NCBI GenBank assembly: GCA_050247355.1
Contig: JBFWUK010000008.1
Location: 114,358 to 178,357 of the forward strand
DNA: 64,000 bases
Reading direction: 5' to 3'
Origin: Vicinamibacterales bacterium
GTDB taxonomy: Bacteria > Acidobacteriota > Vicinamibacteria > Vicinamibacterales > UBA2999
In this document: piece by piece, positions 927 through 23,020 of the stretch
How the letters are laid out: every line of letters begins with the position of its first letter
Numbering within the stretch: position 1 is the first letter of the stretch
Translations under genes and position numbers: made by a program
The notes under the pieces: generated by a model
Told to the model about the DNA's origin: nothing
Databases searched by the model: none
Seen by the model: the letters and a program-made list of their open reading frames with translations, nothing else

Positions 927-1300
927 GCCTGACGGTGGTGCTGGCGGAAGACGACCCTGACATCCAGTTGGTCGCCCGTCTCGCACTCAAGCGCGCCGGC
1001 TTCACGGTGACCGTAGTTGGCAACGGCCAGGAAGCCCTCGACAGCATTCGCCGGCAGCCGCCGGACGTCGTACTGCTCGACTGGATGATGCCCGAGCTCG
1101 ACGGGCCGGAAACCTGCCGGCGGCTCAAGGCGGATCCGGCGACGGCCGACATTCCCGTGATCTTCCTGACCGCCAAGTCCCAGGAGGCAGAGATCCAGCG
1201 GGGCATGAGCCTGGGTGCCTCGGGCTACGTGACCAAACCGTTTGACGCCCTGTCACTCGGACAGCAGGTCAAGGACATCGTCGCCACCAAGAACCCGTGA
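923..1300 (+). CDS. Single-domain response regulator (CheY-like receiver)
   Basis: 125 aa. Acidic pocket AEDDPD, phospho-acceptor context VVLLDWMMPELDG, FLTAKS and YVTKPF motifs. ATGA overlap upstream and GTGA overlap with the downstream kinase. Confidence 0.85.
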   Translation: MSLTVVLAEDDPDIQLVARLALKRAGFTVTVVGNGQEALDSIRRQPPDVVLLDWMMPELDGPETCRRLKADPATADIPVIFLTAKSQEAEIQRGMSLGASGYVTKPFDALSLGQQVKDIVATKNP

Positions 1301-3990
1301 CTATCCGCACGCGGGCGTTCATCGGCCTGTGGCTGATCTACCTTCTCGCAGCCAGTGCAATCAGCCTCATCCTCTACACCTACTCGGTGACGACGCGGCT
1401 GGATGAAGAGCAAGCCCGCATCTCCGAAGTCCTGAACATCCACGGCACCATGTGGCGCGCGCTGGCCGAAACCCGCGCCAACCACCTGGCCTACGCCATG
1501 ACCGGGGTGCCGGCGCTGCGGGAGCGGCGCGACGAGAACCGGCGCGTCTTTTCTGGATCGCTGGCACTGCTGGCGGCCACGGAACGCGACGCGGGGCAAC
1601 TGGCGCGCCTGTCGCGCATTCGCATGGCCGTCGGCGCCTGGTTCGCGCGCTGGCCGCCGGCCGAGGCGCCGCCCAGCGTCGTCACGCCGGCGGAGGCCGA
1701 TCGGCTCGTGCAGGGCGCGGCCGACGAGTACGCGCCGATCAACCGCGAACTGGTCGAGTTCGACCTGCACGAACGAGAGTTGCTGCGCGATTCCCTGGCG
1801 ACCATCGCCGAGCTGCGGGGAACCATGGCGGCCGGCCGGATTGCCTTCGCCAGCCTGTTCATTCTCAGCATCAGCGGCATCATCTGGTTTGCCAAGCGCG
1901 GCGTACTCGACCCGCTGCGTGAGCTCACCATTTCCGCCGAGCGCATCGAGCAGGGCGACTTCACGGCCGCGCACCAGACGCTGCGCGACGACGAGATCGG
2001 CCTGTTGATCAACTCGTTCGCCAAGATGACCCAGTCGATCCAGATGCGCGAGCGCGAGCTGGCCACGGCGTTGAGCGAGACCCGCGACCTCGCCAGCGTG
2101 ACGGCCGAGGCGCGGCGGCGGGTCGAGGCCGCGCATGCCGACCTGCTGGCGACCCTGGAAACCGTGCCGGCGGCGTTGATGATTTTCAACACCGACAGCA
2201 GCGTGCGGCTGCGTAACAAAGCGGCCACCGACGTGTTCGGCATCGAGCCGCAGAACCCCGAACTGCGCAAGAACTACTGGGCCCGATTCAAGCGGATCGC
2301 CAAGGATGGCACGCCAATCCCGCCGGCGGAGTGGATCTCCAACCGCGCGTTGCGCGGCGAGCACGTGATCAACCAGGAACTCGAGATCCACCATCCCGAT
2401 GGCCGGGTCTTTCCGATCCTGGCCAGCGGCGCGCCGCTGCGCAACGAGCTCGGCCACGTCGCCGGCGCCGTCGTCGCCTTCCAGGACATCTCGCGCCTGC
2501 GCGAAGTCGATCGCATGAAGGACGAGTTCGTGTCGATCGTCAGCCACGAACTGCGCACGCCGCTGACCTCGATCCGCGGCTCGGTGCAGCTGGTGCTGGA
2601 CGAGCCCGATTCCGTGCCGGATGCCGAGCATCGGCAGTTGCTGCAGATCGCGCTGAACAACTGCGAACGGCTGGTCCGCATCATCAACGACATTCTCGAC
2701 GTCGCGAAGATCGAGTCGGGCAACATCACGCTGCACAGGAAGCCGGTCAACGTCGCCGACATCGTGCGGCAGTCGATTCAGGTGGTGGAAGGACCGGCGC
2801 GGGCCGCCCAGGTGGCGATCGAAGCCAGGCTGCCGGCCAAGCTGCGGCCCGTCATGGTCGACCCCGATCGCATCGTTCAGGCGCTGGTCAACCTGCTCTC
2901 GAACGCGGTGAAGTTCGCGCCCCAGGGATCCACGGTGTCGGTGACGGCGGCCGGCTCCGAGAACATGGTCACGCTGGCGGTTTCGGACCAGGGCGACGGC
3001 ATTGCCCCCGAGAACCTGAACCGGCTGTTCAAGAAGTTCCAGCAGGTCGACAGCTCGTCGTCCCGGCGCAAGGGCGGCACCGGCCTGGGCCTGGCTATTA
3101 CCAAGGCGCTGGTCGAGCAGCACGGCGGCCGCATCTTCGTTGACAGCGCGGTGACCAAGGGCACCCGGTTCTCGTTCACGCTGCCGGCGGCGACGGCCGA
3201 AGAAGCTGACGCTGTGTCACTGGCTCCGGTGGCGGCCAACAGGGACGGCTCGGCGCGGCTGGCCGTGCGCCGCGTGCTGGTGGTCGATGACGACGACGAC
3301 TTCAGGAGCTTGATTCGCGCGCAACTGACCAACGCCGGCTACGAAGTGCTGGATGCGCGCGACGCGGCATCGGCCATTCATATTGCCCGGACGATGCGGC
3401 CGGATATCATCACCGTCGACCTGATGATGCCGGGCCTCGACGGGTGGGATTTCATCGAGCGCCTGCGCAGCGAGGAAGGCCTGGCCCGCATCCCGGTGGT
3501 CGTGGTCTCGGGAGTGCCGGAGGCGACCGAGTCGGAGCGCCGGCCCGAAGGCGTGGCGGTCGTCACCAAGGGCGAGGGCCTCGAGCGCCTGCTGCGGGAG
3601 ATCAGCAACTCGCTGGGCAATCGCCGCGGGGCCACCGTGCTGGTGGCGGAAGACGATGCCGACTTGCGCGGTGTGCTGACGGCGGCACTGACTCGCAACG
3701 GCCATCGCGTACTGCAGGCGCGTGATGGCGCCGAAGCCCTGGCGGCGATCGAACGCGAACCGGTCGACCTGCTCGTGCTCGACCTGGTGATGCCGAACAT
3801 CGACGGCTACGAAGTACTAGCCCGCCTGAAATCGAACGAACAGGACGCGCGCATTCCGGTGGTGGTGGTGTCGGGCGCCGACCGGTCGTCGAGTGAGCTG
3901 CGATCGCTGCGGCTCGGGGCCAACGTCTATCTGACGAAGCCCATCGAAGCCGCAGCGCTCACCGAAGAAGTCACCCGCCTGCTAACGTAG
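1297..3990 (+). CDS. Hybrid sensor histidine kinase (sensor-HAMP-PAS-HisKA-HATPase-REC-REC)
   Basis: 897 aa. N-terminal TM plus periplasmic sensor (CHASE3-like by layout), second TM, HAMP, PAS. H-box SIVSHELRTPLTSI; N/G boxes LLSNAVKF, DQGDGI, GGTGLGLAI. Two receiver domains follow (VLVVDDDDD...DLMMPGLDG and VLVAEDDAD...DLVMPNIDG). Confidence 0.85.
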   Translation: MTIRTRAFIGLWLIYLLAASAISLILYTYSVTTRLDEEQARISEVLNIHGTMWRALAETRANHLAYAMTGVPALRERRDENRRVFSGSLALLAATERDAGQLARLSRIRMAVGAWFARWPPAEAPPSVVTPAEADRLVQGAADEYAPINRELVEFDLHERELLRDSLATIAELRGTMAAGRIAFASLFILSISGIIWFAKRGVLDPLRELTISAERIEQGDFTAAHQTLRDDEIGLLINSFAKMTQSIQMRERELATALSETRDLASVTAEARRRVEAAHADLLATLETVPAALMIFNTDSSVRLRNKAATDVFGIEPQNPELRKNYWARFKRIAKDGTPIPPAEWISNRALRGEHVINQELEIHHPDGRVFPILASGAPLRNELGHVAGAVVAFQDISRLREVDRMKDEFVSIVSHELRTPLTSIRGSVQLVLDEPDSVPDAEHRQLLQIALNNCERLVRIINDILDVAKIESGNITLHRKPVNVADIVRQSIQVVEGPARAAQVAIEARLPAKLRPVMVDPDRIVQALVNLLSNAVKFAPQGSTVSVTAAGSENMVTLAVSDQGDGIAPENLNRLFKKFQQVDSSSSRRKGGTGLGLAITKALVEQHGGRIFVDSAVTKGTRFSFTLPAATAEEADAVSLAPVAANRDGSARLAVRRVLVVDDDDDFRSLIRAQLTNAGYEVLDARDAASAIHIARTMRPDIITVDLMMPGLDGWDFIERLRSEEGLARIPVVVVSGVPEATESERRPEGVAVVTKGEGLERLLREISNSLGNRRGATVLVAEDDADLRGVLTAALTRNGHRVLQARDGAEALAAIEREPVDLLVLDLVMPNIDGYEVLARLKSNEQDARIPVVVVSGADRSSSELRSLRLGANVYLTKPIEAAALTEEVTRLLT

Positions 3991-7006: not shown

Positions 7007-7010
7007 CAGA

Positions 7011-7873: not shown

Positions 7874-7874
7874 T

Positions 7875-7940: not shown

Positions 7941-7976
7941 ATTCTTCAAGACCCCAGGTCCCTAGGACCCCAGGAC

Positions 7977-9761: not shown

Positions 9762-9776
9762 TGTGTGGTTACTATT

Positions 9777-9828
9777 TCAACACGAAGGCCACGAAGGACA
9801 CGAAGGCTTTCGTGGTCTTCGTGTTGAA
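9777..9828. repeat. Hairpin made of CACGAAGG 9-mers
   Basis: ttcaacacgaaggccacgaagg-acacgaagg-ctttcgtggtcttcgtgttgaa. About 22-bp stem with 2 mismatches. Lies between the peptidase stop (9834) and the phosphatase start (9761). Confidence 0.8.
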
Positions 9829-9833
9829 CAACG

Positions 9834-11966
9834 TCATTGGGCCGAGGTTTTCGTGGCTGCGTCGCCGAGGGTGTACTTCGTCACCCAGTCGTAGATCCGC
9901 TGCATGCGGTCCTTCTGATGATAGTACTCGCTAATGCCGTGGCCTTCGCGCGGGTAAAACACCAGTTCGGTGGGCTTGCCGCGGTCCTTCAGTCCGCGAA
10001 ACAGTTCCTGCGCCTGCCCGACCGGCACCCGCTCGTCGTTGGCGCCGTGCAGGATCAGGGTGGGCGTGGTGACCTTGTCGATGTGTGACATCGCCGATCG
10101 CTCGAGGTACAGCGGCAGCGTCTTCGCGTTTGGAATGCCGCCGAAGTAGCTGATCAGCACGCTGGGAATGTCGTTGGTCCCGTACATGCTCCACATGTTG
10201 GTCAGGCCGGCGCCGACCATGGCCGCCTTGAAGCGGCTGGTCTGCGTGATCACCCACGCCGTCATGTAGCCGCCGTAGCTCCAGCCGATGTGCGCCAGCT
10301 TGTCGGGGTCGGCAATGCCGCGGGCAACCAGCGCGTCCACCCCGGTGATGATGTCCCGGTAGTCGCCGCCACCCCAGTCGTTGAGGTTGTGCTGCAGGAA
10401 CTTCTCGCCGTAGTTCGTGCTGCCGCGGGGGTTGGGGTAAAACACCGCCCAGCCCTTGTTGGCCCACACCTGGCCGCCTTCGAGGCCGCCCAGGCGGAAG
10501 CCGTTGACGTACGCCCCCGCCGGACCGCCGTGCGCCACGACCAGCGTCGGGTACTTGGTGCCGGCCGCGAAGCCCACCGGCTTGAGCAGGACCCCCTCCA
10601 CTTCCACCCCGTCGGCCCCCTTCCAGGTGACGACCTCGGTGTCGCCCTGCGACAACCCGGCAAGCTGGGGGTTGGTGGTGGTCAACTGGCGGAAGGTCTG
10701 GTACGCCGGATCGGTGACGTAAACCTCCGAGGCGGAGTTCGGCGTGTCCATGGTCAGCGCGATGGTCCGGCCATCCCTGCTGATCGATGTGCCCTGCAGC
10801 GTCTTGCGGGTGCTCAACTGCGTGTAGCGGCCGGTGGTGAGGTCGTAGGCAAACGCCTCGTTATAGGCGCGCTTGCCGGCGACGAACACCACGCGGTTGC
10901 CTTCCGCCGTCCACACCGGGTTGCCGGCGTCGGTGTCGAAGTCCGGCGACGACACATCCTTGGCAGACTTGGCGGCGACGTCGTACAGCATCAGCTTCGA
11001 GTGCATGGTGACGCCGGGCGCGGTGCCGTCTGGCAGCGGCGGCCCGGAATAGGGTTCGGCGGTCCACACGATCGACTTGCCGTCGGGCGACCAGCGCGGC
11101 GAGGTGTCGCTGCCGAAGTTGGTGCTGATCTTCTCGACCCGCTTCGACGCCACGTCGGCCAGGTAAATGTCGCGGCGGTTGTCGCGCAGCATCGGCGTGG
11201 CGCCGGCGCCGAACACGAACCGCTGGCTGTCGGGTGCCCACGACGGCGCGCCGGCCACGGTGTAGTCCTTGCCCTCGGTAATCCTCGTCGCCGCATCGGC
11301 AACGAAATGCGGCCCTACTGGCACGATCCAGATGTGCGCGTGGCGGAAGTCGCCTTCGAACACCCGCTCGTCATCGCGCTTCCTGATGGCGGCTTCTTCG
11401 TCGGCGCTGCGGGCGTCGGTGGCGACAAATGCGATGCGCGAAGCGTCGGGCGCCCACGAGTAGCTGGAGACGTTCTCCTTGCTGTCGGTCAGCCGCCAGG
11501 CTTCGCCGCCGTCCGCGCGCATGACGTAAATCTGCGCCTTGACCTCGTCGCCGGCACCACGGGCCGAGACGAAGCTGATGTGGCGGCCGTCGGGCGACCA
11601 CTGGGGCTGGCTGTCGCCTTTCGCGCCGAAGGTAATCTGGCGAGCCGGGCTGGAGCCATTGGTGGCCACCTGCCAGATGTGGGTGCGCGCCTCCATGCGG
11701 CCCGCCCCGAGCGACGCTTGCGCGCCCGCAAGCGGAGTCGAAGGGTCGCGCTCGGGCACCCACTGCCGCACGGTGTAGAGCACCTGGCTGCCGTCGGGCG
11801 AAATGGTGGCGCCGGCCACGGCTTTCACGGCGAGCACGTCATCGAAGGTGACCGGCCGCTTGTTCTGGGCTGACGCCGATGAGGTGAGCGCCAGGGCGAG
11901 GACGACAAACCTGAAGGTGTGTCGCCACGCGGCGGTGTGTCGCCCGCGGGTGGGGGTGGTGTGCAT
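9834..11966 (-). CDS. S9 family serine peptidase with N-terminal beta-propeller
   Basis: Catalytic Ser motif GWSYGGY. TolB/WD-like repeats (SPDG...FV) in the N-terminal half. Start moved to ATG 11966 (MHTTPTRG... then signal-like FRFVVLALALTSSASA), because the longer ORF would overlap fabZ. Confidence 0.85.
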   Translation of the reverse strand: MHTTPTRGRHTAAWRHTFRFVVLALALTSSASAQNKRPVTFDDVLAVKAVAGATISPDGSQVLYTVRQWVPERDPSTPLAGAQASLGAGRMEARTHIWQVATNGSSPARQITFGAKGDSQPQWSPDGRHISFVSARGAGDEVKAQIYVMRADGGEAWRLTDSKENVSSYSWAPDASRIAFVATDARSADEEAAIRKRDDERVFEGDFRHAHIWIVPVGPHFVADAATRITEGKDYTVAGAPSWAPDSQRFVFGAGATPMLRDNRRDIYLADVASKRVEKISTNFGSDTSPRWSPDGKSIVWTAEPYSGPPLPDGTAPGVTMHSKLMLYDVAAKSAKDVSSPDFDTDAGNPVWTAEGNRVVFVAGKRAYNEAFAYDLTTGRYTQLSTRKTLQGTSISRDGRTIALTMDTPNSASEVYVTDPAYQTFRQLTTTNPQLAGLSQGDTEVVTWKGADGVEVEGVLLKPVGFAAGTKYPTLVVAHGGPAGAYVNGFRLGGLEGGQVWANKGWAVFYPNPRGSTNYGEKFLQHNLNDWGGGDYRDIITGVDALVARGIADPDKLAHIGWSYGGYMTAWVITQTSRFKAAMVGAGLTNMWSMYGTNDIPSVLISYFGGIPNAKTLPLYLERSAMSHIDKVTTPTLILHGANDERVPVGQAQELFRGLKDRGKPTELVFYPREGHGISEYYHQKDRMQRIYDWVTKYTLGDAATKTSAQ

Positions 11967-12003
11967 CAAGTCCTCCAAGGGGCGAAGTATAATTCCGATC
12001 TTC

Positions 12004-12450
12004 ATGGACATTGCACTGCCGCTGGACATCACGGCGATCGAGCGGATTCTGCCCCATCGCTCGCCGTTCCTGCTCGTCGACCGCATCACCGAACTCGAGC
12101 CGGATCAGCGGATCGTGGGCATCAAGAACGTCTCGACGAACGAGCCCTACCTCAGCCGGCCCGGCCCCGGCGGACGGCCAACGCTGCCGCCGACCATCCT
12201 GACCGAGTGCGTGGCCCAGGTCGGCGCCATCCTGATCCTGGCGAAGCCCGAGAACAAGGGCATGCTGATCTTCTTTCGCGGCATGGAGCGGGTCCGCTTC
12301 CGCGCCCCGGTGCACGTCGGCGACCAGGTGATCATCGAGGCGCGCGTCAAGCGCCTCAAGAGCCGTATGGGCGTACTCGAAGGCCGGGCACGCGTCGGCA
12401 AGAAAGTGGTCATCCACGGCACCATGACCTTCGCGCTCGGTTCGGAATGA
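12004..12450 (+). CDS. fabZ: 3-hydroxyacyl-ACP dehydratase
   Basis: MDIALPLDITAIERILPHRSPFLLVDRI...: the canonical FabZ N-terminus with catalytic His. 148 aa from the internal ATG of ORF 11803..12450. Confidence 0.9.
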   Translation: MDIALPLDITAIERILPHRSPFLLVDRITELEPDQRIVGIKNVSTNEPYLSRPGPGGRPTLPPTILTECVAQVGAILILAKPENKGMLIFFRGMERVRFRAPVHVGDQVIIEARVKRLKSRMGVLEGRARVGKKVVIHGTMTFALGSE

Positions 12451-13415
12451 CGCGGCTCCCCCGCATCGCGGCGCTGACCACCGACGACGCTGGCTGGGGG
12501 TTCTTCCTCTGCACCTACAAGGAGGTGCGGGCCGGGCGCAGCGGCAGCGAGTTCGTGATCCTCAACCTGCAGGATGCCTCGGGGCAGACCACCGGCAAGA
12601 TTCTGCAGGACGTCGAGCGCTTCAAGGACGAGTTCGAAGCCGGCGAGTTCGTGCGCGTCGAAGGACGCGGCAGCCTCTACAACGGGCAGGTGCAACTCGT
12701 GCTCAGCACCATCCGCCGGGTCAATCCCGACCAGGATCGCCTGCAGGGCTTCCGCGAGGACGAGTGCATCCTGAGCGCGCCGCGACCGATCGACGAGATG
12801 TGGTCGGAGCTGCAGGAACGCCTGCGCGACGTGAAGAACGACCACCTGCGCGTGCTGCTCAACCGGGTGGTCTCCGATCACTCCGAGCAGCTCAAGACCT
12901 GGCCGGCGGCGCAGACCATTCACCACGCCTATCGCGGCGGCTTTCTCGAGCACATCACCAAGATGGCCGAGGTCGGCGCCCTGCTGTCGCGCGCGTACGG
13001 CGCGAACGACGACCTGGTGCTGACCGGCGTCGTGTTGCACGACATCGGCAAGCTGCAGGAACTGTCGTACGACGGCGGCACCGGCAGCTATACCCGCGAC
13101 GGCAACCTGGTGGGGCACATCGCGCTGGGCCTGATGCTGGTACGCGAGGCCATCAACGGCATTTCCGGATTTCCGCTCGAGCTGCGCGCGCAGGTCGAGC
13201 ACCTCATTGCCTCGCACCACGGCACGCGCGAGTGGGGCTCGCCGGTGGAACCCAAGACGGTCGAAGCGTTCATCCTGGCGTCGGTGGACGAGCTCGACGC
13301 CAAGCTCAATCAGGTCCGCCGCGCGATTGCCGACGACCCGTCGGGCGACGAATTCACCGCCTGGCAGAAGAGGCTGGGTCGGGTGTTGTACAAGGGGTCT
13401 GACCCCGAGCGGTGA
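12447..13415 (+). CDS. OB-fold + HD-domain nuclease (YhaM-like 3'-5' exoribonuclease family)
   Basis: 322 aa from ATG 12447 (ATGA overlap with the fabZ stop). N-terminal OB-like block (FVILNLQDASGQ...VRVEGRG). HD motifs HHAYRGGFLEH, VLHDIGK, ASHHG. Confidence 0.7.
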   Translation: MTRLPRIAALTTDDAGWGFFLCTYKEVRAGRSGSEFVILNLQDASGQTTGKILQDVERFKDEFEAGEFVRVEGRGSLYNGQVQLVLSTIRRVNPDQDRLQGFREDECILSAPRPIDEMWSELQERLRDVKNDHLRVLLNRVVSDHSEQLKTWPAAQTIHHAYRGGFLEHITKMAEVGALLSRAYGANDDLVLTGVVLHDIGKLQELSYDGGTGSYTRDGNLVGHIALGLMLVREAINGISGFPLELRAQVEHLIASHHGTREWGSPVEPKTVEAFILASVDELDAKLNQVRRAIADDPSGDEFTAWQKRLGRVLYKGSDPER

Positions 13416-13490
13416 GTTCCGAGGGGTCTGACCCCCCGTAGCCGCGATGGGGTCAGACCCCTCGACGATGCTTGCTCGGCGTCAGACCCC
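13394..13490. repeat. Cluster of four GGGGTC(A/T)GACCCC palindromes
   Basis: Copies at 13394-13406 (inside the CDS end), 13422-13434, 13449-13461, and a partial copy at 13481-13490. The same motif with the identical tail GGGTCAGACCCCTCGAC occurs at 28424-28440. Confidence 0.85.
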
Positions 13491-14360
13491 TTACTTCCGC
13501 CCCACGATCCACGTCCCCGTCAGCACCAGTCCCGCCGCGAGCAGGGTTCGTGGTGAGAGCGGCTCCCCCAACAACACCGTCCCTAGCGCGACTGCGATCA
13601 TCGGATTGATGTAGGCGTAGAGCGACACCAGCGACAGCCGCAGGTGCTGGATCGCGTAGATGTATGCCGAGTACGCCACCAGCGATCCCGCGATTGCCAG
13701 GTATGCCATCGCCGCCATCGTGCGCGGCGTGAACGACAGCGCGGCCCAGTCGCCGTGCACGGTGGCCGCCGAGAGCAGCATGATGCCGCTGAAGACCATT
13801 TGCAGCGCCGTCGAGGGGAACGGATCGTTGCCGAGCTCATGCCGCTTGGCGTACGAGGTGCCGATCACCCAGCCGACACACGCCAGCTGGATGGCCACCA
13901 CGCCGCCGACGAAGGCGCGACCGCTGGCTCCTCCCTGCGACATCTCCGGCCACACCAGGATGACGATACCCGAGAAGCCGATGGTGAGGCCAATCAAGGC
14001 GCGCGCCGTGAAACGATCGCCGTTCGGCAGCAACCGCTCCAACAGCGCCTGCCAGAAGGGGGTGGTCGCAATCAGCACGGCCGTGAGCCCGCTCGCTACA
14101 TACTGCTGCGCGAACACCACGAAGCCATTGCCGACGATGTTCATCAGGAAGCCCAGCAGCACGAGCGGCCCCCACAGCCGGATCGGCGGCAGGCGGCGAC
14201 CCATCGCGAGCAGGATGCCGCAGAGCAGGACCCCGGCCGACATCCACCGCAGGCCGGCCACGAGCAGCACCGGCACGGATTCGAGCGCCACGCGAATGGC
14301 GAGGTAGGTCGTGCCCCAGATGATGCAGACCGCGACGAAGGCGAGATGCGCCAGGCTCAC
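13491..14360 (-). CDS. EamA/DMT family transporter
   Basis: 289 aa, about 10 TM segments, two-fold EamA-like internal repeat. 4-nt overlap with the upstream Lrp gene. Confidence 0.8.
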   Translation of the reverse strand: MSLAHLAFVAVCIIWGTTYLAIRVALESVPVLLVAGLRWMSAGVLLCGILLAMGRRLPPIRLWGPLVLLGFLMNIVGNGFVVFAQQYVASGLTAVLIATTPFWQALLERLLPNGDRFTARALIGLTIGFSGIVILVWPEMSQGGASGRAFVGGVVAIQLACVGWVIGTSYAKRHELGNDPFPSTALQMVFSGIMLLSAATVHGDWAALSFTPRTMAAMAYLAIAGSLVAYSAYIYAIQHLRLSLVSLYAYINPMIAVALGTVLLGEPLSPRTLLAAGLVLTGTWIVGRK

Positions 14361-14884
14361 GCCCCACCCTCGCCACGGCGGCGGCTGGCGGAACGGGCCA
14401 GTGTTTTTTCCGGCGGAATGGCAATGCGCGGGTCTTCCTTCACCGTCTCCAGAACGATCGTCGTCCTGGTCGAGGTGACACTCTGGGCCGAGGCAATCTG
14501 CTGCCGCAGAATCTGCCCCAGGTGCTCGGCATCGCGCGCGCGCACTTTCAGGAGATAGCAGTCGTCACCGGCCACGTGGTGCACCTCGAGCACTTCGGGA
14601 ATCTTGCTGAGCTCGACCGCCGACGGCATGTCGGGGCCGTGCTCCGAGGTCCGAACACTCACGAAGGCCAGCAGCCCGCGATCGACCACATGGGGGTCGA
14701 TTAGCGCGACGTAATCCTTGATAATGCCCTTCGCCTCGAGCTTCTTGAGCCGCTCGGTCACCGCCGAGGGCGCCAGGCCGACGGCCTTGGCCAGTTCGGA
14801 TTGAGATGTTCTGGCGTTGTACTGAAGAATATCCAGTATTGAGCCGTCAATTCCGTCGATCATTCTGAAATAGTAGCCATTCAA
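14357..14884 (-). CDS. Lrp/AsnC family transcriptional regulator
   Basis: HTH ILDILQYNARTSQSELAKAVGLAPSAVTERLKKLE plus an AsnC-type ligand domain. Alternative start at ATG 14863 (MIDGIDG...). Confidence 0.85.
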   Translation of the reverse strand: MNGYYFRMIDGIDGSILDILQYNARTSQSELAKAVGLAPSAVTERLKKLEAKGIIKDYVALIDPHVVDRGLLAFVSVRTSEHGPDMPSAVELSKIPEVLEVHHVAGDDCYLLKVRARDAEHLGQILRQQIASAQSVTSTRTTIVLETVKEDPRIAIPPEKTLARSASRRRGEGGA

Positions 14885-14901
14885 TTGGATTTGTTCAATG
14901 T

Positions 14902-16134
14902 ATGACCTTCTGGACTGAGGCGTCTCCGGCGGCCAGAAAGGCCTTGGTGGCCGCTTCTCTGGGCTGGCTGCTCGATGCGTTCGACGTGATGCTGTACGCC
15001 CTGATCCTCACCGCCGTGGTGAAGGATCTTGGGCTGACGCTCGCGACCGGCGGTCAACTGGCGTCGCTGACCCTCGCGGCCTCGGCCCTTGGCGGGCTGT
15101 TGTTCGGCGTGATTGCCGATAAGCTGGGCCGCACGCGCGCCCTGTCGCTCAGCATCCTGTTGTATTCCGTGTTCACGTTTGCCTGCGGCCTGGCGCAAAA
15201 CGTGTGGCAGCTGGCGATCTTCCGCTTCCTGCTGGGACTCGGCATGGGCGGCGAGTGGGCGAGCGGTGCCACGCTGGTGAGCGAGACGTGGCCCGAGAAG
15301 CACCGCGGCAAAGCGCTGGGCATCATGCAAAGCTGCTGGGCGATTGGCTACGGCGCCGCCGCCCTGGTCGTCGGCCTGGTGCTGCCCACCTACGGCTGGC
15401 GCGCGGTCTTCTTCGTCGGCATCGTGCCCGCTCTCTTCACGTTGTGGATCCGCCGCAACCTCGAAGAGCCCGAAATGTGGCGTCGGTCCCGTCAAGAAGC
15501 GTCGCCGCGTCAGGATGTGCCGCCCCGTCAGGCGCCGCCGTCCCGGCTGGGAGCACCCCTGCACTTGATCGTGCTCCTCACCCTGATGAACGCCGCGACC
15601 ATGTTCGCCTGGTGGGGACTCAACCTCTGGGTGCCGTCGTACCTGTCGTTGCCCGTCGAGCAAGGCGGCATTGGTCTCTCCACCACGACCATGTCGATGT
15701 TCATCATCGCCATGCAGGTGGGCATGTGGCTCGGCTACGTCACGTTCGGGTTCATCAGCGACACCTTCGGCCGCAAGCCGACCTATGTGACGTATCTGGT
15801 CGTGGCGGCCGCGCTGGTATGGGCGTACGGCTCCACCAGCGAGCCGACCTACTTGCTGGCGCTCGGGCCGTTCGTGGCGTTCTTCGGTACGGGGTACTTC
15901 AGCGGTTTCGGCGCCGTTGCATCAGAGATCTTTCCCACGGCCATCCGCGCAACGGCGCTCGGCGTGACGTACAACAGCGGGCGCCTGTTGAGCGCGGTGG
16001 CGCCCTACGTGATTGGCAGCCTCGCGCAATCGCAGGGCTTTGGCCTGGCGTTCACGATCACGGCGTTCGCGTTCCTGATTGCCGCGATGATGTGGATTGG
16101 GATTCCGGAGACACGTGGACGACAGATGGTGTGA
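14902..16134 (+). CDS. MFS transporter
   Basis: 410 aa, about 12 TM segments. MFS loop motif GVIADKLGRTR. Confidence 0.8.
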   Translation: MTFWTEASPAARKALVAASLGWLLDAFDVMLYALILTAVVKDLGLTLATGGQLASLTLAASALGGLLFGVIADKLGRTRALSLSILLYSVFTFACGLAQNVWQLAIFRFLLGLGMGGEWASGATLVSETWPEKHRGKALGIMQSCWAIGYGAAALVVGLVLPTYGWRAVFFVGIVPALFTLWIRRNLEEPEMWRRSRQEASPRQDVPPRQAPPSRLGAPLHLIVLLTLMNAATMFAWWGLNLWVPSYLSLPVEQGGIGLSTTTMSMFIIAMQVGMWLGYVTFGFISDTFGRKPTYVTYLVVAAALVWAYGSTSEPTYLLALGPFVAFFGTGYFSGFGAVASEIFPTAIRATALGVTYNSGRLLSAVAPYVIGSLAQSQGFGLAFTITAFAFLIAAMMWIGIPETRGRQMV

Positions 16135-16248: not shown

Positions 16249-17478
16249 TTATCCGACGCGATTCTGTCGATTGCTGTCGTCGGCGATCAGCGTCGCGGTC
16301 TCCGCGGCGATGCGGACGCAGTTGCGGCCATCGTCTTTGGCGCGATACAGCGCCTGGTCGGCGCGTGCGATCACCGCTTGCACGTTGACCTCGCCCGGCA
16401 GCGTCTGTGCCAGGCCGAAGCTCGCGGTGATGGCGAGTGCCTCGCCCGCCCACGGCACCGGCCGGTCGGCAATTTCCTTGCGCAGCGTTTCGGCCACGCG
16501 GCGGGCGCCGTGGAGCGGGGTCTCGGGCAACAGCACCAGGAACTCCTCGCCGCCGTAGCGGCACTTCAGGTCCGAGCCGCGCAGTACGTCCTTCATGCGC
16601 TTGCCCACCGCGCTCAGCACGGCATCGCCGCACAAGTGGCCGTGGCGATCGTTCACGTCCTTGAAGTGATCCAGGTCGAACATGATCAGCGACACCGGCG
16701 TCTGGCTGCGCCGCGCGCGGCGCAGTTCGGCGTCGACGACGTCGAGGGCGTGGCCGCGTGTGAAGCAGCCGGTCAGCGCATCGCGCACGCTGTTTTCCTT
16801 GACCTCGCGAAACAGTTGCGCGTTCTTGATCGACACCGCGAGCAGGGCGCCCGCGGCTTCGATGATCCGCCGCTTGTCGGCCGGCAGGCCGCCGGACTCG
16901 GGCCGGACGCCGAGCACGCCCATGGCGGTGCCGCCGACCACCAGCGGGAAGCCGACGGCGCGCGGCTGGTTCAGGTGATTGGGCGTCTTGTCGGCGTGCG
17001 AGGCCAGCAGTTGCTCGGCGATGTCGCCCCACTGCAGCACTTCTTCCGCGCCGCGCGTATCGCCCGACAAGGCCTGCCATTCCGTACCCTCGCGCACCAG
17101 CACCCACACGTCGTCGGTACCGGCGAGGGCCGGCAGGTGCTGGCCGATGGCGACGCGAATGGACTCGAAGTCGAGCGCGCGGCCCAGCGCCTGGCCGAAG
17201 CCGACGAGCCGCTCGAGTTCCTCGGCGCGATGCTGCGCCGCCCGGGTGGCGGTCTGGGCGGCGGCGGTCTTGGCGTGCTCCTGCGAGTTGCGCCGGTACT
17301 GGTGGAAGACGAATGCGACGGTCAGCAGCACGAGGGCGGGCATCAGCGTCAGCCCGCTCTGGCGCTCGATCTCGCGCGCGTAGTCGAGCATGCGCGAAAT
17401 GGGCGTCGAGAAGATGACGATCAGCGCCGTTGTCAGGGCGCCGATCAGCAGCAAGTCCTGTTGGCCAAACAGCTTCAT
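16249..17478 (-). CDS. Membrane GAF-GGDEF diguanylate cyclase
   Basis: 409 aa. Two N-terminal TM segments, a GAF-like middle region, and a GGDEF domain with RYGGEEF active site and RxxD-like I-site context. Confidence 0.85.
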   Translation of the reverse strand: MKLFGQQDLLLIGALTTALIVIFSTPISRMLDYAREIERQSGLTLMPALVLLTVAFVFHQYRRNSQEHAKTAAAQTATRAAQHRAEELERLVGFGQALGRALDFESIRVAIGQHLPALAGTDDVWVLVREGTEWQALSGDTRGAEEVLQWGDIAEQLLASHADKTPNHLNQPRAVGFPLVVGGTAMGVLGVRPESGGLPADKRRIIEAAGALLAVSIKNAQLFREVKENSVRDALTGCFTRGHALDVVDAELRRARRSQTPVSLIMFDLDHFKDVNDRHGHLCGDAVLSAVGKRMKDVLRGSDLKCRYGGEEFLVLLPETPLHGARRVAETLRKEIADRPVPWAGEALAITASFGLAQTLPGEVNVQAVIARADQALYRAKDDGRNCVRIAAETATLIADDSNRQNRVG

Positions 17479-17495
17479 CGGAACCGGGTCAGTAT

Positions 17496-17578
17496 GCCAG
17501 ATCCGGGACCCGGTATCCCGAATCGGGACCAGCCCGCCGTGGCGTGCGGATCCCGGATCCCGGGTCGCGGGACCCGGT
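17496..17578. repeat. CCCGG-rich 7-mer repeats (GATCCCG / GACCCGG)
   Basis: gatccgggacccggtatcccgaatcgggacc ... ggatcccggatcccgggtcgcgggacccgg, in the divergent spacer. Confidence 0.6.
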
Positions 17579-17591
17579 GTAGATTATCTGC

Positions 17592-18122
17592 ATGTCTTTG
17601 AACTCCAGGACCTTCACTTTCCTGCTCGGAATTGCCGGGCTGGCGTTGCTGACCACGGTGGCCATTGCCGCGGCCACCTCCGCTGCGGCCGAGGGGCAGG
17701 CCGCCCGGTCACAGACCGCCAAACCGGCGGCCAGGCCTGCCGTGGTGCGCAAGACCGCGCCGCCGCTGCCCGCCATGGGGTTCGCGCCCGTGCGGCCCAT
17801 GGACGTCGTCCGCGCCACTTACGACTTCGCGGCGCAGCATCCCGAGATTCTGTCGTACGTGCCGTGCTACTGCGGCTGCGGCGCCGATGGCCACAAGCAC
17901 AACGAGTCGTGCTTCGTCGCCCGCCGTGACGCGCGGGGCAACGTGATCGAGTGGGACACGCACGGCTTCGGCTGCACCATCTGCATCGATGTCGCGCGCG
18001 AGGCCATGCAGATGTACTCGTCGGGCGCCGACGTCGTGTCGATTCGCGCCGCGATCGAGAAGAAGTGGACGCCCGGCAACGCCGCCGGCAAGACGCCCAC
18101 GCCGTTCCCACCAAAGAAGTAA
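17592..18122 (+). CDS. Secreted PCYCGC-motif protein (DUF family)
   Basis: 176 aa. Signal peptide, then the motif VPCYCGCGADGHKHNESCF. A second Cys cluster, HGFGCTICID. Confidence 0.6.
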   Translation: MSLNSRTFTFLLGIAGLALLTTVAIAAATSAAAEGQAARSQTAKPAARPAVVRKTAPPLPAMGFAPVRPMDVVRATYDFAAQHPEILSYVPCYCGCGADGHKHNESCFVARRDARGNVIEWDTHGFGCTICIDVAREAMQMYSSGADVVSIRAAIEKKWTPGNAAGKTPTPFPPKK

Positions 18123-18125: not shown

Positions 18126-19712
18126 GTGGATGTGTTCCAGGCCGTTCGCGAGGGTGTCTATATCGGCACTCTCGAAGCGGCCAGCACTTCAACGATCTCC
18201 GCCAATCCCCACCTGAAGACGATCTTCGGCTACCCGCCGGAGACGGCCGAAACGCACGTCCAGCCGTTCGACAGTTCCCGTTTCGTCGATCCCGAGGCGC
18301 GCACATTGTTCGTCGAGCGTTTGGATCGTGAAGGCCGTGTGACCGACCTGCTGCTCCGGTTGCGCCGGGTCGATGGTGCGCCAATCTGGGTGGAGGTCAC
18401 GGCCAGCGCGTCCTACAGGCAGGGCCACCCGTCGCTGCCGTCCGGCGCGCAAGGCGCGAGCGGGCCGTCCGATCGCGCCGCCCTTCGCGTCGAGGCCCTG
18501 ATCCGGGACGTCAGCGAGCGCAGGAAGCTCGATGACCAGTCGCGCGACGGCCGCTACCAGTTGCTGCAAGCCGAGAAAATGGCCGCGCTCGGGCAGACCA
18601 TTTCCGGCGTCGCGCACGAGCTCAACAATCCTCTCGCCACCATCCTGTCGTGGGCGGAGCGGCTCGCCGAACGTAACGTGGACGACAAGACGCGGCAGGG
18701 ACTCGAGGTCATCCTCGCCGAATCCGAGCGTGCCGCCCGCATCGTCCGCAACCTGTTGACCTTCGCGCGCAAGCGCCAGACGACACGGGCGATGGTCGAC
18801 CTGAACCAGGTGGTGCGCGAGACCCTCGCCCTGCGGGCCTACGAGCAGAAGGTCAGCAACATCCAGGTGGTCGAGGCCCTGGCGCACGGTCTGCCGGAAG
18901 TGTTCGCCGATGGGCACCAGATCAAGCAGGTGCTGCTCAACCTGCTGATCAACGCCGAACAGGCGTGCATTGGCGCCAACGGCCGGGGCACCATCGTCGT
19001 GCGCACGGCGCATGATGCCGATCGCGGCTCCGCCGTGCTCGAGGTCAATGACGATGGTCCGGGGATTGCGGTCGAGAAGCAGGGCCGCGTCTTCGACCCG
19101 TTCTTCACGACGAAGGAAGTGGGCCACGGCACCGGCCTGGGCCTCACAGTCGCCTATGCCATCGTCCAGGAACACAGCGGGCGCATCTGGCTCGAGTCGA
19201 GTCCTGTCGCCAGCCCGAAGGGAGCCGCCGAAGGGCACGGCGCGAAAGCAGGCACGTCGTTCTTCGTCGAGCTGCCGGTCAGCGGGCAGCACTTGAACGC
19301 GCCGGCGGCGCGGGCGGCGCAACAGCCGATCTCGCTCGAGGCGTTCAAGGGGTTGCGGGTGCTGGTGGTCGAGGACGAACCGGCACTGGCGGTGGCGGTC
19401 GCCGAGGCGCTCGAGGATGCGGGGTTCACGGTCGATCGCGCCGGCGACGGCGAAGAGGGCCTGACCCGCCTCACCGAAGCCAGCTACGACCTGATCGTCT
19501 GCGACCTGAAGATGCCCCGGATTGACGGCATGCAGTTCTACCGCGCGATGGCCGCGGCCACGCCGGCGCTGGCGCGGCGCGTGATCTTCGTCACCGGTGA
19601 TGTCGCCGGCACCGATGCCGAGCGTTTTCTCGAAGAGACCGCCTGCCGCTGGCTGTCCAAGCCCTTCAGGTTGGGCGACTTGCTGCGCGCCGCCCGCGAC
19701 ACGTTGTCCTGA
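18126..19712 (+). CDS. Hybrid histidine kinase (PAS-HisKA-HATPase-REC)
   Basis: 528 aa. H-box VAHELNNPLATILSWAERL; N/G boxes LLINAEQA, DDGPGI, GTGLGLTVAY. C-terminal receiver VLVVEDEP...DLKMPRIDG...VTGD. GTG start 4 nt after the upstream stop. Confidence 0.85.
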   Translation: MDVFQAVREGVYIGTLEAASTSTISANPHLKTIFGYPPETAETHVQPFDSSRFVDPEARTLFVERLDREGRVTDLLLRLRRVDGAPIWVEVTASASYRQGHPSLPSGAQGASGPSDRAALRVEALIRDVSERRKLDDQSRDGRYQLLQAEKMAALGQTISGVAHELNNPLATILSWAERLAERNVDDKTRQGLEVILAESERAARIVRNLLTFARKRQTTRAMVDLNQVVRETLALRAYEQKVSNIQVVEALAHGLPEVFADGHQIKQVLLNLLINAEQACIGANGRGTIVVRTAHDADRGSAVLEVNDDGPGIAVEKQGRVFDPFFTTKEVGHGTGLGLTVAYAIVQEHSGRIWLESSPVASPKGAAEGHGAKAGTSFFVELPVSGQHLNAPAARAAQQPISLEAFKGLRVLVVEDEPALAVAVAEALEDAGFTVDRAGDGEEGLTRLTEASYDLIVCDLKMPRIDGMQFYRAMAAATPALARRVIFVTGDVAGTDAERFLEETACRWLSKPFRLGDLLRAARDTLS

Positions 19713-20719: not shown

Positions 20720-21010
20720 CTCAAGAATCTCCGTTGCCTGCCCTAAGGCAAAGGCGATGCCTGAGCTGTGTAACTATGGTCAAGAGCGTGCACGGCGGAC
20801 CTGAGATCAGAATAAGTGTCTTTGAAGTCAGCCACTTACACGGCTGTGCTCAGCCCTGCGCCGGGCCTGGAGCCGTCTTGTATTGCTGCGATCAACGCCA
20901 ATTATATGGCGGCTAAGCGAGTTTGTGAGTCAATAGTTTGGCGGCAGATATTTATTTTGCAGGTGGGATCACGGATCCGTAGCTGCGTCGGAGCCGGTTG
21001 AAATCGGGGG

Positions 21011-21041
21011 AAATAACTCCGGCAGGACGCCGGAGTTATTT
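21011..21041. terminator. Intrinsic terminator-like hairpin (symmetric)
   Basis: aaataactccggc-aggac-gccggagttattt: 13-bp stem whose A/T ends give T-runs on both strands. The stop codon of the 21036..21317 ORF lies within it. Confidence 0.6.
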
Positions 21042-21317
21042 GGGTTCTGCGACGGACTGGCGCAGTTCGCGCGAGACGGCCATCGCCTGGAGCGCGGCGC
21101 TCACCACCTGCGACGCGCGCGCCTTTTGCGCGGCGTCTTGTGCCTTGGTCTCCAACAACTCGGCGTGCGCGAGAATCACGCCGAGTTGATTATTCAGCCG
21201 ATGGAGGAGTTCGCGAGAATCTTCTCCTGCCATGTCCTGCCTTTGCCGTTGCATTTCTATCTGAGTAATCTGCGTCATCTGCGGCCCTGGTGGGGGGCCG
21301 GCGTTATCTGTGTTCAC
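21036..21317 (-). CDS. Stand-alone DHp (histidine-kinase dimerisation/phospho-acceptor) mini-protein
   Basis: LLHRLNNQLGVILAHAELLETKAQDAAQKARASQVVSAALQAMAVSRELRQ matches a HisKA H-box plus second helix. No ATPase domain. Start is ambiguous: GTG 21317 (GTGA-coupled), ATG 21278 or ATG 21254. Confidence 0.5.
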   Translation of the reverse strand: MNTDNAGPPPGPQMTQITQIEMQRQRQDMAGEDSRELLHRLNNQLGVILAHAELLETKAQDAAQKARASQVVSAALQAMAVSRELRQSVAEPK

Positions 21318-21577
21318 GCTACTGCGTTCGGGCTGTTCGGGTGCTTGGTGCCGTCCGGCTCACGCCACAGCGTGTCGACGAAGATCCGGATACTGCCGCC
21401 GGCGGTCCGCAGGTACTCGACCTTGTTGGCCGCGATCCAGTTGTAGATCGTGCGCCGGCTGACGCCGACCATCTCGCACGCCTTCATGATGCTTACTGTT
21501 TGCCGTTCCACGGGGTTAGCCTCCAAGGGTTGTATCGGAGGCTGCCACCGTGGGATTAGTCGTGCAGCCCTTGACAC
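21314..21577 (-). CDS. Excisionase/MerR-superfamily HTH DNA-binding protein
   Basis: MKACEMVGVSRRTIYNWIAANKVEYLRTAGGSIRIF is a typical helix-turn-helix_17 / Xis-like motif. N-terminal boundary uncertain. Confidence 0.6.
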   Translation of the reverse strand: MSRAARLIPRWQPPIQPLEANPVERQTVSIMKACEMVGVSRRTIYNWIAANKVEYLRTAGGSIRIFVDTLWREPDGTKHPNSPNAVA

Positions 21578-21610
21578 CCCCGTGCAACCCCGTCAAAATC
21601 CTGACAACCC

Positions 21611-23020
21611 ATGGCCCATCTGCTACTGGTAGACGACGAGGAATCGCTCAGAAGTGTTGTAGCAGAAAGACTTACCGACCAGGGCTTCGAGGTGGTCCAA
21701 GCCGCGGATGGCGAGTCCGCTGTGAAAGCGCTCGATGGGTTTGCCTTCGACGTCATCGTCTCCGATCTCCGCCTTCCGGGGGTCGACGGACGCCATGTCA
21801 TTGACGCCGCCCTCACCCGATACCCCGGCATCGTCGCCATCGTGGTCACCGGCTATGGCACGGTCAAGGACGCCGTCGACATCATCAAGCGCGGTGCTGC
21901 CGACTTCATCGCCAAGCCCTTCCAATTCGACGAGTTGATGCACGTGCTTACCAACGCGCTCGAGCAGAAGCGGTTGAAGAGCGAGAACGCGTACCTGCAT
22001 CAGCAACTGGACGAGCGCTTCGGTCTGGGATCGATGGTCGGCAGGAGCGCGCCAATGCGCGCGCTGTTCCAGTTGATCGAAACCGTGGCGCCGACGTCGG
22101 CGACCATCCTGATCAGCGGCGAGACCGGCACCGGCAAGGAGATGGTCGCGCGGGCGATTCACCAGACCAGCCCGCGGCAGCGCGAGCGGTTTGTCGCCAT
22201 CAACGTCAGCGCCATTCCCGAGACGTTGCTCGACGCAGAGCTGTTCGGCCACGCGCGCGGCGCCTTCACCGGGGCGGTGGCGATGCGCCAGGGGCGGCTC
22301 GAGCAGGCCGACAAGGGCACCTTGTTTCTCGACGAGGTGGGCACCATGCCCATGGCGCTGCAGATGAAAATGCTGCGGGTGCTGCAGGAGCGGGAGTTCG
22401 AGCGCATCGGCGACAACCGCACCATCAAGGTCGACGTGCGGATTGTCGCGGCGACCAACGCCGAGTTGTTGAAGATGGTGAAGGAGGGCACGTTCCGCGA
22501 AGACCTTTACTATCGCCTGAACGTGATTGCGGTACACCTCACGCCGCTGCGCGAGCGTCCCGAAGACATTCCACCCCTGGTGCAAAACTTCCTGCGGAAG
22601 TTTTCGGATCGGGAACCGGGAACCGGGAACCGGGAACCAGGCGGTTCACGACTCCCGATTCCCGACTCCCGACTCCCGACCGTCTCACAAGAAGCCATGC
22701 GCCGCTTGATGGCCCACCCGTGGCCGGGGAACGTCAGGCAGCTGGAGAACGCCATCGAGCGCGCCCTGGCGTTGCTGGGCGGCCGCAACCAGATCGAGCT
22801 TGCCGACCTGCCGCCCGACCTGCAGCCGGTGGAGCAGGACACGGCGGCGCCGTCGTTGGACCTGCCCGAGAAGGGTATCGACCTGCCGGCGCTGATCGCG
22901 CGGATTGAGAAGGACCTGATCGAGCGCGCCCTCACCCGCACGGCGCAAAATCGCGGCGCGGCGGCACGGTTGCTAGGCTTGAAGCGGACGACGCTCGTGG
23001 AGAAGCTGAAGCGAATGTAG
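21611..23020 (+). CDS. Sigma54-dependent response regulator (NtrC family: REC-AAA+-Fis HTH)
   Basis: 469 aa. Receiver LLVDDEES...VSDLRLPGVDG...VTGY. Walker A GETGTGKE, GAFTGA loop (ARGAFTGAV), WPGNVRQLEN. C-terminal HTH AARLLGLKRTTLVEKLKR. Confidence 0.92.
   Translation: MAHLLLVDDEESLRSVVAERLTDQGFEVVQAADGESAVKALDGFAFDVIVSDLRLPGVDGRHVIDAALTRYPGIVAIVVTGYGTVKDAVDIIKRGAADFIAKPFQFDELMHVLTNALEQKRLKSENAYLHQQLDERFGLGSMVGRSAPMRALFQLIETVAPTSATILISGETGTGKEMVARAIHQTSPRQRERFVAINVSAIPETLLDAELFGHARGAFTGAVAMRQGRLEQADKGTLFLDEVGTMPMALQMKMLRVLQEREFERIGDNRTIKVDVRIVAATNAELLKMVKEGTFREDLYYRLNVIAVHLTPLRERPEDIPPLVQNFLRKFSDREPGTGNREPGGSRLPIPDSRLPTVSQEAMRRLMAHPWPGNVRQLENAIERALALLGGRNQIELADLPPDLQPVEQDTAAPSLDLPEKGIDLPALIARIEKDLIERALTRTAQNRGAAARLLGLKRTTLVEKLKRM
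22610..22680 (+). repeat. Heptamer arrays inside the sigma54-activator CDS
   Basis: (CGGGAAC)x4, a 12-nt spacer, then GACTCCC GATTCCC GACTCCC GACTCCC. Translated as REPGTGNREPGGSRLPIPDSRLP. Confidence 0.9.

Follow-up and report, generated by a model that had tools for sequence, protein, structure and literature searches.

The locus and its genes

The window examined here is a stretch of 64,000 nucleotides (nt) from contig JBFWUK010000008.1 of a Vicinamibacterales bacterium (assembly GCA_050247355.1). On its minus strand lies a small gene whose product resembles the dimerisation and histidine phosphotransfer (DHp) domain of two-component histidine kinases, encoded here as a free-standing protein of about 65 amino acids (aa) that we call the hairpin protein. 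The gene sits directly behind one for a helix-turn-helix (HTH) protein of the excisionase/MerR type, and the pair is followed by a gene for a sigma factor of the FliA/WhiG family. On the other side of the pair, an NtrC-type sigma-54 activator is encoded divergently, and a hybrid histidine kinase that carries its own receiver domain (HK-REC) converges on the sigma gene. The features of the locus are collected in Table 1.

Table 1. Genes and regulatory features of the locus (window positions).
Feature	Position	Strand	Basis and details
Hybrid histidine kinase (PAS, HisKA, HATPase_c, REC), convergent with sigma gene	18126..19712	+	Pfam domains
FliA/WhiG-family sigma factor, low-complexity C-terminal tail of ~140 aa	19538..20719	-	TIGR02479; Pfam Sigma70 r2, r3, r4
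Putative sigma-54 (-24/-12) promoter of sigma gene (AGGCATCGCCTTTGCC)	20747..20762	-	Window scan; 28 nt before sigma ATG
Two palindromic boxes, CGCCA-N6-TGGCG type (CGCCAAACTATTGACT, 20928-20943; CGCCATATAATTGGCG, 20896-20911)	20896..20943	-	Fixed spacing
Terminator-like hairpin starting at hairpin-gene stop codon	21012..21040	-	dG -24.4 kcal/mol, z -4.1 against shuffles
Stand-alone DHp-like hairpin protein, 65-aa core (MAGEDS...AEPK)	21036..21233	-	ORF listing, homologues, substitution pattern, AlphaFold2
Excisionase/MerR-like HTH_17 protein, 65 aa, co-operonic with hairpin gene	21314..21511	-	Pfam, TIGR01764
Putative sigma-28/WhiG-type promoter of HTH-hairpin operon (TAAT-N15-TCCGATA)	21533..21558	-	Conserved motif
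Putative sigma-70-like promoter of activator gene (TTGACA-17-CAAAAT, 21571-21599) and third box (CGTCAAAATCCTGACA, 21591-21606)	21571..21606	+	Promoter scan, box search
NtrC-type sigma-54 activator (REC, AAA+, Fis-type HTH)	21611..23020	+	Pfam Response_reg, Sigma54_activat, HTH_8

The initial annotation of this DNA drew both small genes as their longest open reading frames (ORFs), and these are present as it described them: 21036..21317(-) for the hairpin protein, at most 93 aa from a GTG at 21317, and 21314..21577(-) for the HTH protein, at most 87 aa, the two overlapping in the letters GTGA. Neither of these starts is likely to be in use. Homologues of the hairpin protein are mostly 64-65 aa long, and their N-termini are not conserved, being variable ahead of the motif 'EDSRELL'. 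We therefore place the start of the core at ATG 21233, with ATG 21278 as a possible alternative. For the HTH gene, the most probable start is GTG 21511, with a GGAGG 8 nt upstream; its long-ORF start is unlikely because a conserved promoter sits downstream of it. With the starts corrected, the GTGA coupling of the two genes and their 33-nt divergent spacing from the activator gene turn out to be artefacts of the longest ORFs, and the spacer to the NtrC-type ATG at 21611 becomes ~99 nt. The operon arrangement itself is conserved, with intergenic gaps between the two genes that range from -1 to ~80 nt.

The hairpin gene is real. When 81 distinct DNA versions of its 52-codon core are compared, codon positions 1, 2 and 3 show 0.256, 0.151 and 0.505 differences per site, a pattern of purifying selection on the minus-strand frame. 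An ORF on the opposite strand, 21126..21446(+), spans the HTH/hairpin junction, would encode 106 aa and has a coding-like GC content at third codon positions. It was rejected as a gene, as the substitution pattern by codon position fits the minus-strand frame; one antisense frame of the hairpin core is nevertheless open in 67 of the 81 DNA versions. In our view, the antisense ORF arises as a side effect of the minus-strand genes.

The hairpin ORF had also been described as ending inside a terminator hairpin. This is so in the window, where a stable 12-bp stem, retained in the nearest relatives, has the stop codon at its base, but it is not a general feature of the family: of 82 loci, only 18 have a hairpin of strong structure (z < -2) behind the stop.

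A conserved gene neighbourhood

Gene order was compared across 84 related loci, and three distant loci (L085-L087) were looked at besides. The HTH gene directly precedes the hairpin gene in every one of the 84, as well as in L085-L087, so that the pairing described in the initial annotation proves to be strict; in 88 loci the two genes are never apart, even after rearrangement. The sigma gene follows the pair in 83 of the 84 loci, and the activator gene is the divergent neighbour in 82, as the initial annotation had it in the window. Conservation of the neighbourhood, one of the checks proposed at the outset, is thus borne out.

In the great majority of the 84 loci, the HK-REC gene is no more than ~3 kb away from the hairpin gene. 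The remark that the NtrC-type regulator has no cognate kinase beside it was therefore an overstatement, and the HK-REC is a candidate kinase for the activator on grounds of gene neighbourhood. The segment FVTGD of the HK-REC receiver is ambiguous by the Rec(inter)/FATGUY features (PMC9981736).

The distant loci vary this theme. Whereas L086 and L087 retain the gene order of the window, L085, whose hairpin protein is 62% identical over the aligned core, is rearranged, with the promoter and the sigma, HTH, hairpin and activator genes following one another on one strand; its four genes are still together and the sigma gene is again adjacent to the pair. At L083 the HTH-hairpin-sigma trio is kept, and neither an HK-REC nor an activator is present in the 12-kb locus.

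The hairpin family

Small homologues of the hairpin protein are numerous. A word-indexed protein search yielded 1294 clusters at 90% identity, with listed matches of 63-93 aa. HMMER, run exhaustively over 1.84 billion representatives (E<=1e-3), gave 250 clusters at 50% identity, and the best 150 of these 250 cluster representatives are all 51-220 aa long, with no full kinase among them. In a scan of 185,579 species-representative genomes, 520 stretches encode a relative. Among the best 80 of these 520, Vicinamibacterales is the taxon most often named, beside generic Acidobacteriota labels; the minority of other taxon labels in these 80 we take to be mislabelled metagenome-assembled genomes.

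No curated family covers the protein. It has no match at the thresholds used in Pfam or PHROGs and none in PADLOC, and its sole NCBIfam match is insignificant (PRK13559, E 0.021, 13.7 bits against a cut-off of 361). The absence of a curated family from Pfam and NCBIfam agrees with the first impression that this size and architecture belong to no characterised family. Our literature search, under the terms tried, found no description of a natural stand-alone DHp family. An origin from phage or defence systems is not supported, as PHROGs and PADLOC give the HTH protein only generic excisionase and mad1 HTH matches.

One subfamily of the hairpin proteins (P0195, P0210, P0213, P0223 and P0263) is longer, at 135-174 aa, and places an N-terminal extension and then a low-complexity linker before the hairpin. 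The extension bears a conserved 'DLSRW[IL]GPLSPAF' motif, and Thr replaces Arg directly after the His. The extended form also occurs at L085 (positions 1922-2392 of that locus), within the rearranged order of sigma, HTH, hairpin and activator genes.

Resemblance to kinase DHp domains

AlphaFold2, run on a single chain with an 89-sequence alignment, predicts the two-helix hairpin that had been proposed from the sequence, with helices at residues 2-29 and 34-62 and a mean predicted local distance difference test score (pLDDT) of 91.7. The predicted fold is the one expected of Pfam HisKA (PF00512), an antiparallel two-helix hairpin of ~65 residues. When the model is compared with the Protein Data Bank (PDB) by Foldseek, DHp domains head the list: ZraS (9jfj, with a query-normalised TM-score of 0.81), YF1-type kinases and RetS/GacS (7n0e). 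Taken alone, such a match of predicted folds is suggestive. HisKA is also the only Pfam family that is matched repeatedly when each of 89 family members is scanned separately (29 of 89 at E<=10, best E 8e-4), and residues 9-42 of the window protein align on positions 9-42 of the HisKA model, with the His on the phospho-His.

The hairpin protein has no match to HATPase_c. Its ORF stops 52 residues past the His, and together with the short lengths of the family's best representatives this upholds the initial view that a catalytic ATPase domain is absent. Pfam Hpt is not matched; the protein has two predicted helices in 65 residues, against four in ~100-120 for a histidine phosphotransfer (HPt) domain.

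An alignment to the hybrid kinase 2.9 kb away had been claimed for both helices. For the H-box helix it holds: the family profile and that of the neighbouring kinase give a 35-column alignment that places His on His (E 9e-5, probability 59%), and BLASTP gives 11 identities in 23 positions, again His on His (E 9e-4). For the second helix, the similarity to this kinase is without statistical support. The second hybrid kinase of the window (1297..3990) had been suggested as a further partner, and profile comparison with it detects no relationship.

Residues were counted by column in 144 cluster representatives of the family. The His is kept almost without exception (139 of 144) and stands in the H-box register of HisKA, H-x-L-x-[TN]-x-L, so both the ORF and its His are conserved in related genomes, as the proposal in the initial annotation requires. 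Leu occupies His+2 in all 144 and His+6 in 141, and the hydrophobic positions His+2, +6, +9, +13 and +16 are retained, following the heptad register of HisKA. Around them lie Asn at His+3 (137) and His+4 (141), Gln at His+5 (132) and Gly at His+7 (137), and further along Glu at His+14 (142) and His+17 (139) and Arg at His+28 (137). The position directly after the His departs from HisKA: it is Arg in 103 sequences, Gln in 18, Thr in 10 and Lys in 7, with any other residue in only 6 of the 144. Among the sequences read, an acidic residue (Glu) stands there only in P0168. The wide hydrophobic face that this pattern gives the hairpin would be compatible with a four-helix bundle.

The meaning of these columns can be judged from work by Willett and Kirby on CrdS (the kinase of an NtrC-type activator), HK853 and two NtrB homologues (PMC3510030). 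HisKA domains need an acidic residue directly after the His for kinase activity only, and the Thr/Asn at His+4 for phosphatase activity only; the latter is merely enhanced by the His itself (PMC3510030). The hairpin family has lost the kinase residue and kept the phosphatase residue. We conclude that by predicted fold, register and motif the hairpin protein is a HisKA-like DHp domain, albeit one that fails the curated threshold of that family and lacks the acidic His+1, and that the initial proposal of a stand-alone DHp-like hairpin is confirmed, as a conserved family.

One option put forward in the initial annotation is an inhibitor that titrates a kinase by heterodimerisation. The hairpin might then be a microprotein derived from a kinase, heterodimerising non-productively with the DHp domain of the neighbouring hybrid kinase. 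RetS would be the model. It disrupts the DHp dimer of GacS and so blocks GacS (PMC8498467); RetS/GacS complexes are among the top fold matches, and the closest detectable relative of the hairpin within the window is the H-box helix of the neighbouring kinase. Production at the end of the putative cascade described below would also fit a brake of this kind. Nevertheless, we regard such a poison as improbable. A pure dimerisation poison would not need the near-invariant, solvent-exposed H-box residues (the His and Asn-Asn-Gln), and their conservation suggests more than RetS-type poisoning of a dimer. Helix 1 alone aligns with the kinase, and at His+7, +8, +11 and +12 the hairpin has G, V, A and H where the kinase has A, T, S and W. 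Further, the HTH-hairpin-sigma trio persists at L083, where the HK-REC is missing from the 12-kb locus. RetS itself shares the DHp hairpin, although it is a large multidomain hybrid kinase as opposed to the 65 residues here.

Promoters and a putative regulatory cascade

The sigma factor passes TIGR02479 (FliA/WhiG) with 207 bits against a cut-off of 189.6. The initial annotation had overlooked this factor and the conserved promoters of its gene and of the HTH-hairpin operon. Its last recognised domain ends at about residue 253, and the tail of ~140 aa may be over-called or a real extension. The sigma and hybrid kinase ORFs overlap convergently by 175 nt (19538-19712), an overlap that is also present in L001-L004.

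Between the hairpin and sigma genes, a sigma-54 promoter motif (TGGCA[TC]-N5-TTGC[CG]) is found in 82 of 83 loci, and in L085-L087 as well. Two palindromic boxes lie ~180 and ~148 nt upstream of it, at fixed distances, in 62 of 79 loci; in an alignment they form conserved blocks. We consider them candidate enhancer sites (upstream activating sequences) of the NtrC-type activator, and their layout is the classic one for the enhancer sites of an autoregulating activator of this type. A box of the same kind adjoins the start of the activator gene here and in several other loci. The activator would accordingly regulate its own gene, and the overlap of box and promoter suggests autorepression. The activator gene appears nearly leaderless, with just 11 nt between the end of its putative promoter and the ATG.

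The HTH-hairpin operon has a different type of promoter. A strict TAAN-N15-NCCGATA motif, of the sigma-28/WhiG type, precedes the HTH gene in 61 of the 83 loci and occurs nowhere else on either strand of 1.9 Mb of locus sequence; the 64-kb window contains it once. Most of the remaining loci bear variants of the form CTAAAC/CTAATC-N14-16-CCGATA. At L085 the HTH gene directly follows the sigma gene, and this would explain the absence of a sigma-28-type promoter there. We infer that the FliA/WhiG-type sigma factor uses the promoter of the HTH-hairpin operon. Because this operon has a sigma-28-type promoter and the sigma gene a sigma-54 promoter, the hairpin protein would be an output of a cascade headed by the NtrC-type activator, and the conserved promoters point to an order that runs from the activator to the sigma factor and on to the HTH and hairpin proteins.

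Flagellar control is apparently not the role of the sigma factor here, judging by gene content. No flagellar genes were found by Pfam among the 16 ORFs scanned, namely ten at 923-16134 and six around the locus. We found nothing relevant in the literature on sigma-54/FliA cascades in Acidobacteria or on this cassette. In many loci the cassette is accompanied by genes for a GGDEF diguanylate cyclase (minus strand) and a PCYCGC-motif protein (plus strand, immediately ahead of the hybrid kinase gene), which in the window occupy 16249-18122. By analogy with Streptomyces, a link between cyclic di-GMP (c-di-GMP) and the FliA/WhiG-type sigma factor is conceivable.

These promoters also bring into view a role that involves no receiver domain. 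The hairpin might be a FlgM-like anti-sigma factor for the FliA/WhiG-type sigma factor, or an oligomerisation or regulatory partner of the HTH_17 protein, its DHp likeness being a remnant. We think this unlikely, although it has several points in its favour. The tightest linkage of all is that of the HTH, hairpin and sigma genes, which breaks in only one of the 84 loci and survives the rearrangement at L085. The operon promoter is of the sigma-28 type, and transcription of the FlgM gene also uses sigma-28. Sigma factors of the WhiG type are held by small helical coiled-coil anti-sigma factors of the RsiG type (PMC8325347), and like the FlgM and RsiG modules, the hairpin is a small helical protein beside a FliA/WhiG-family sigma factor that apparently transcribes it. 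In sequence, the hairpin is unlike these proteins, being kinase-like and not anti-sigma-like, and its conserved residues are exactly those of the HisKA H-box. The c-di-GMP motif of RsiG, E(X)3S(X)2R(X)3Q(X)3D, or even its reduced form S..R...Q...D, occurs in none of 383 family sequences, and FlgM is absent both from the Pfam matches of the window protein and from the 25 most-matched families across the 89 members. By sequence, therefore, the hairpin belongs with neither FlgM nor RsiG, and the analogy with FlgM draws solely on the sigma-28-type promoter.

A partnership with the HTH protein would suit the fact that the two genes never part and that some called proteins fuse them. The HTH protein reaches the cut-offs of its families (HTH_17, 31.8 bits against 27; TIGR01764, 32.9 against 28.8). 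Altogether, 36 HTH-hairpin fusion proteins were found, many with garbled segments of the frameshift type and from single long contigs. On these grounds most are attributed to assembly indels, and the fusions were rejected as 'Rosetta stone' evidence. An AlphaFold2 model of a natural fusion, built from 17 fused sequences, has a disordered linker, and the packing of its domains against each other is not predicted with confidence (pLDDT 60, predicted TM-score 0.42).

A proposed phosphatase in a feedback loop

We favour a reading in which the hairpin protein is a natural DHp-only phosphatase, or a phosphoryl sink, that acts on the receiver domain of the activator and provides delayed negative feedback, and we assign this reading a probability of roughly 0.35. 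To judge by its residues the protein cannot be a kinase, because it has neither an ATPase domain nor an acidic residue after the His. Phosphatase or sink activity is most likely because the His and the Asn at His+4 are kept, while the residue needed by a kinase is lost. Two copies of the hairpin would form a four-helix bundle to which a receiver domain would dock. The receiver of the adjacent activator is the most likely partner, and that of the neighbouring hybrid kinase a further possibility. In the loop that we envisage, a kinase would phosphorylate the activator, which together with sigma-54 would switch on the gene of the FliA/WhiG-type sigma factor. The sigma factor would then transcribe the HTH-hairpin operon, and the hairpin protein would take the phosphate off the activator, so that the negative feedback would be delayed.

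Engineered proteins offer a parallel. The isolated DHp domains of EnvZ and NtrB are likewise two-helix HisKA hairpins without an ATPase domain, and alone they are sufficient for phosphatase activity on their cognate regulators (PMC3510030). The hairpin protein, like them, keeps the Asn at His+4 that phosphatase activity needs, and its neighbour is an NtrC-type regulator. It differs from them in having Arg, Gln, Thr or Lys instead of Glu/Asp at His+1, and Gln instead of Pro at His+5. Moreover, the EnvZ and NtrB domains are engineered fragments of kinases, whereas the hairpin is a natural, independently encoded and conserved family, known from sequence.

A second possibility, raised in the initial annotation, is that the hairpin is a minimal His-phosphotransferase. 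It would accept phosphate from the HK-REC receiver on its His and pass it to the activator, in the manner of Spo0B or ChpT without their C-terminal domain. Spo0B of Bacillus and ChpT of Caulobacter are DHp-type hairpins that use a phosphorylatable His to move phosphate from one receiver to another and have no kinase activity, and they show that a dimeric DHp bundle is able to act as the second His carrier (PMC3433190). A relay of this kind would account for a His that is kept in 139 of 144 representatives in the HisKA register. The hybrid HK-REC and the receiver-bearing activator are both conserved neighbours, and no HPt domain was found by Pfam in the ORFs scanned (10 at 923-16134 and 6 around the locus). 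The missing acidic residue at His+1 is no obstacle, as HPt proteins lack one too.

Even so, we hold such a relay to be doubtful. The profile search of PDB sequences (E<=10) gave no match to Spo0B or ChpT. Both of those proteins bear an additional C-terminal alpha/beta (pseudo-ATPase) domain that the hairpin lacks, which sets it apart from them, and both keep the acidic residue after the His. A few family members (P0235, P0257) are without the His yet keep the LNNQLG motif. Then there is a problem of bootstrapping. Only a sigma-28-type promoter is conserved upstream of the operon; under a relay it would give positive feedback, and the hairpin would be needed by the very cascade that makes it. 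A brake is favoured over a relay because the last-made product of a cascade need not start that cascade. Position in the cascade and residue pattern together favour a feedback phosphatase over a phosphotransferase or the titration of a kinase.

Several observations weigh against the feedback phosphatase or against the DHp likeness on which it builds. The window protein does not reach the curated HisKA cut-off, scoring 14.2 bits (E 0.048) against 26.9. In the Foldseek comparison with the PDB every E-value is 0.6 or worse, and helical hairpins carry little information. The family profile finds nothing significant among PDB sequences at E<=10; the best match there (E 0.17) is a GAF-domain helix and not a DHp domain, and was set aside. 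A His conserved at 97% exceeds the strict need of a HisKA phosphatase and would be in keeping with a phospho-acceptor. As a hybrid (HK-REC), the neighbouring kinase belongs to a type that classically needs a second His carrier, and no such carrier is seen nearby. Lastly, the strict pairing with the HTH gene is unexplained by a phosphatase.

This pairing could be accommodated in two ways. As the genes were not separated in any of the 88 loci, a complex of the two proteins is conceivable. The hairpin and the HTH_17 protein would then form a two-polypeptide regulator in which a receiver phosphorylates the DHp His and the HTH subunits are dimerised or positioned on DNA or on the activator, an arrangement that we judge very unlikely, more so than any of the foregoing. 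Alternatively, the two proteins might each act on the activator. TorI, a protein of excisionase fold, binds and inhibits the response regulator TorR and also acts on DNA (PMC3509656), so that small HTH proteins of this sort can target response regulators. Both TorI and the HTH partner here have ~65 residues and the excisionase fold. They differ in setting, as TorI is encoded by a prophage and works with an integrase, while the HTH gene is chromosomal and belongs to a regulatory cassette with no integrase nearby. On this analogy, and purely by inference, a two-pronged brake on the activator by hairpin and HTH protein is conceivable.

Other features of the window

Further signalling genes lie elsewhere in the window. 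A gene for a single-domain receiver and then one for a hybrid kinase of HAMP-PAS-HisKA-HATPase-REC-REC architecture occupy 923-3990(+), and a GAF-GAF-SpoIIE (PP2C) phosphatase is encoded at 7977-9761(-).

The activator gene contains a hairpin of tandem heptamers at 22608-22680(+), in which (CGGGAAC)x4 is followed by 13 nt and (CTCCCGA-like)x4. The repeat is in frame and encodes 'REPGTGNREPGGSRLPIPDSRLP'. The activator has 469 aa in the window, against 457 aa (L001) and 462 aa (L087) in two called homologues. Heptamer palindromes of the GGGAGTC type are also present in the spacer between the hairpin and sigma genes of L007, at ~6200-6290 of that locus, and GGGACCCGG/GGATCCCGG repeats occur upstream of the PCYCGC gene (window 17495-17590). 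Together these look like a mobile or expanding family of repeat palindromes that is able to land in coding DNA. A search of Rfam over 19-24 kb found nothing relevant; its one sub-threshold hairpin match lies inside the activator gene.

Implications

Two-component kinases are usually described with the phospho-histidine hairpin and the ATPase domain together. What is new here is a DHp module that exists as a free-standing gene, apparently inside a cascade that leads from sigma-54 to a sigma-28-like factor. If the hairpin protein is indeed a dedicated phosphatase or His carrier, it would be the smallest known element of a two-component system, and a clear case of a bacterial microprotein carved from a larger signalling enzyme. 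Should the hairpin and HTH proteins instead make up a two-polypeptide regulator, they would represent a transcription factor controlled by phosphorylation on histidine rather than aspartate, at the end of a loop from sigma-54 through a sigma-28-like factor to the regulator. The cassette appears to be a fully specified regulatory loop, comprising an activator, its candidate enhancer boxes, a sigma-54 promoter, a sigma factor, the putative cognate promoter of that factor and two small proteins. It is carried by the Vicinamibacterales, an abundant and poorly studied group of soil bacteria.

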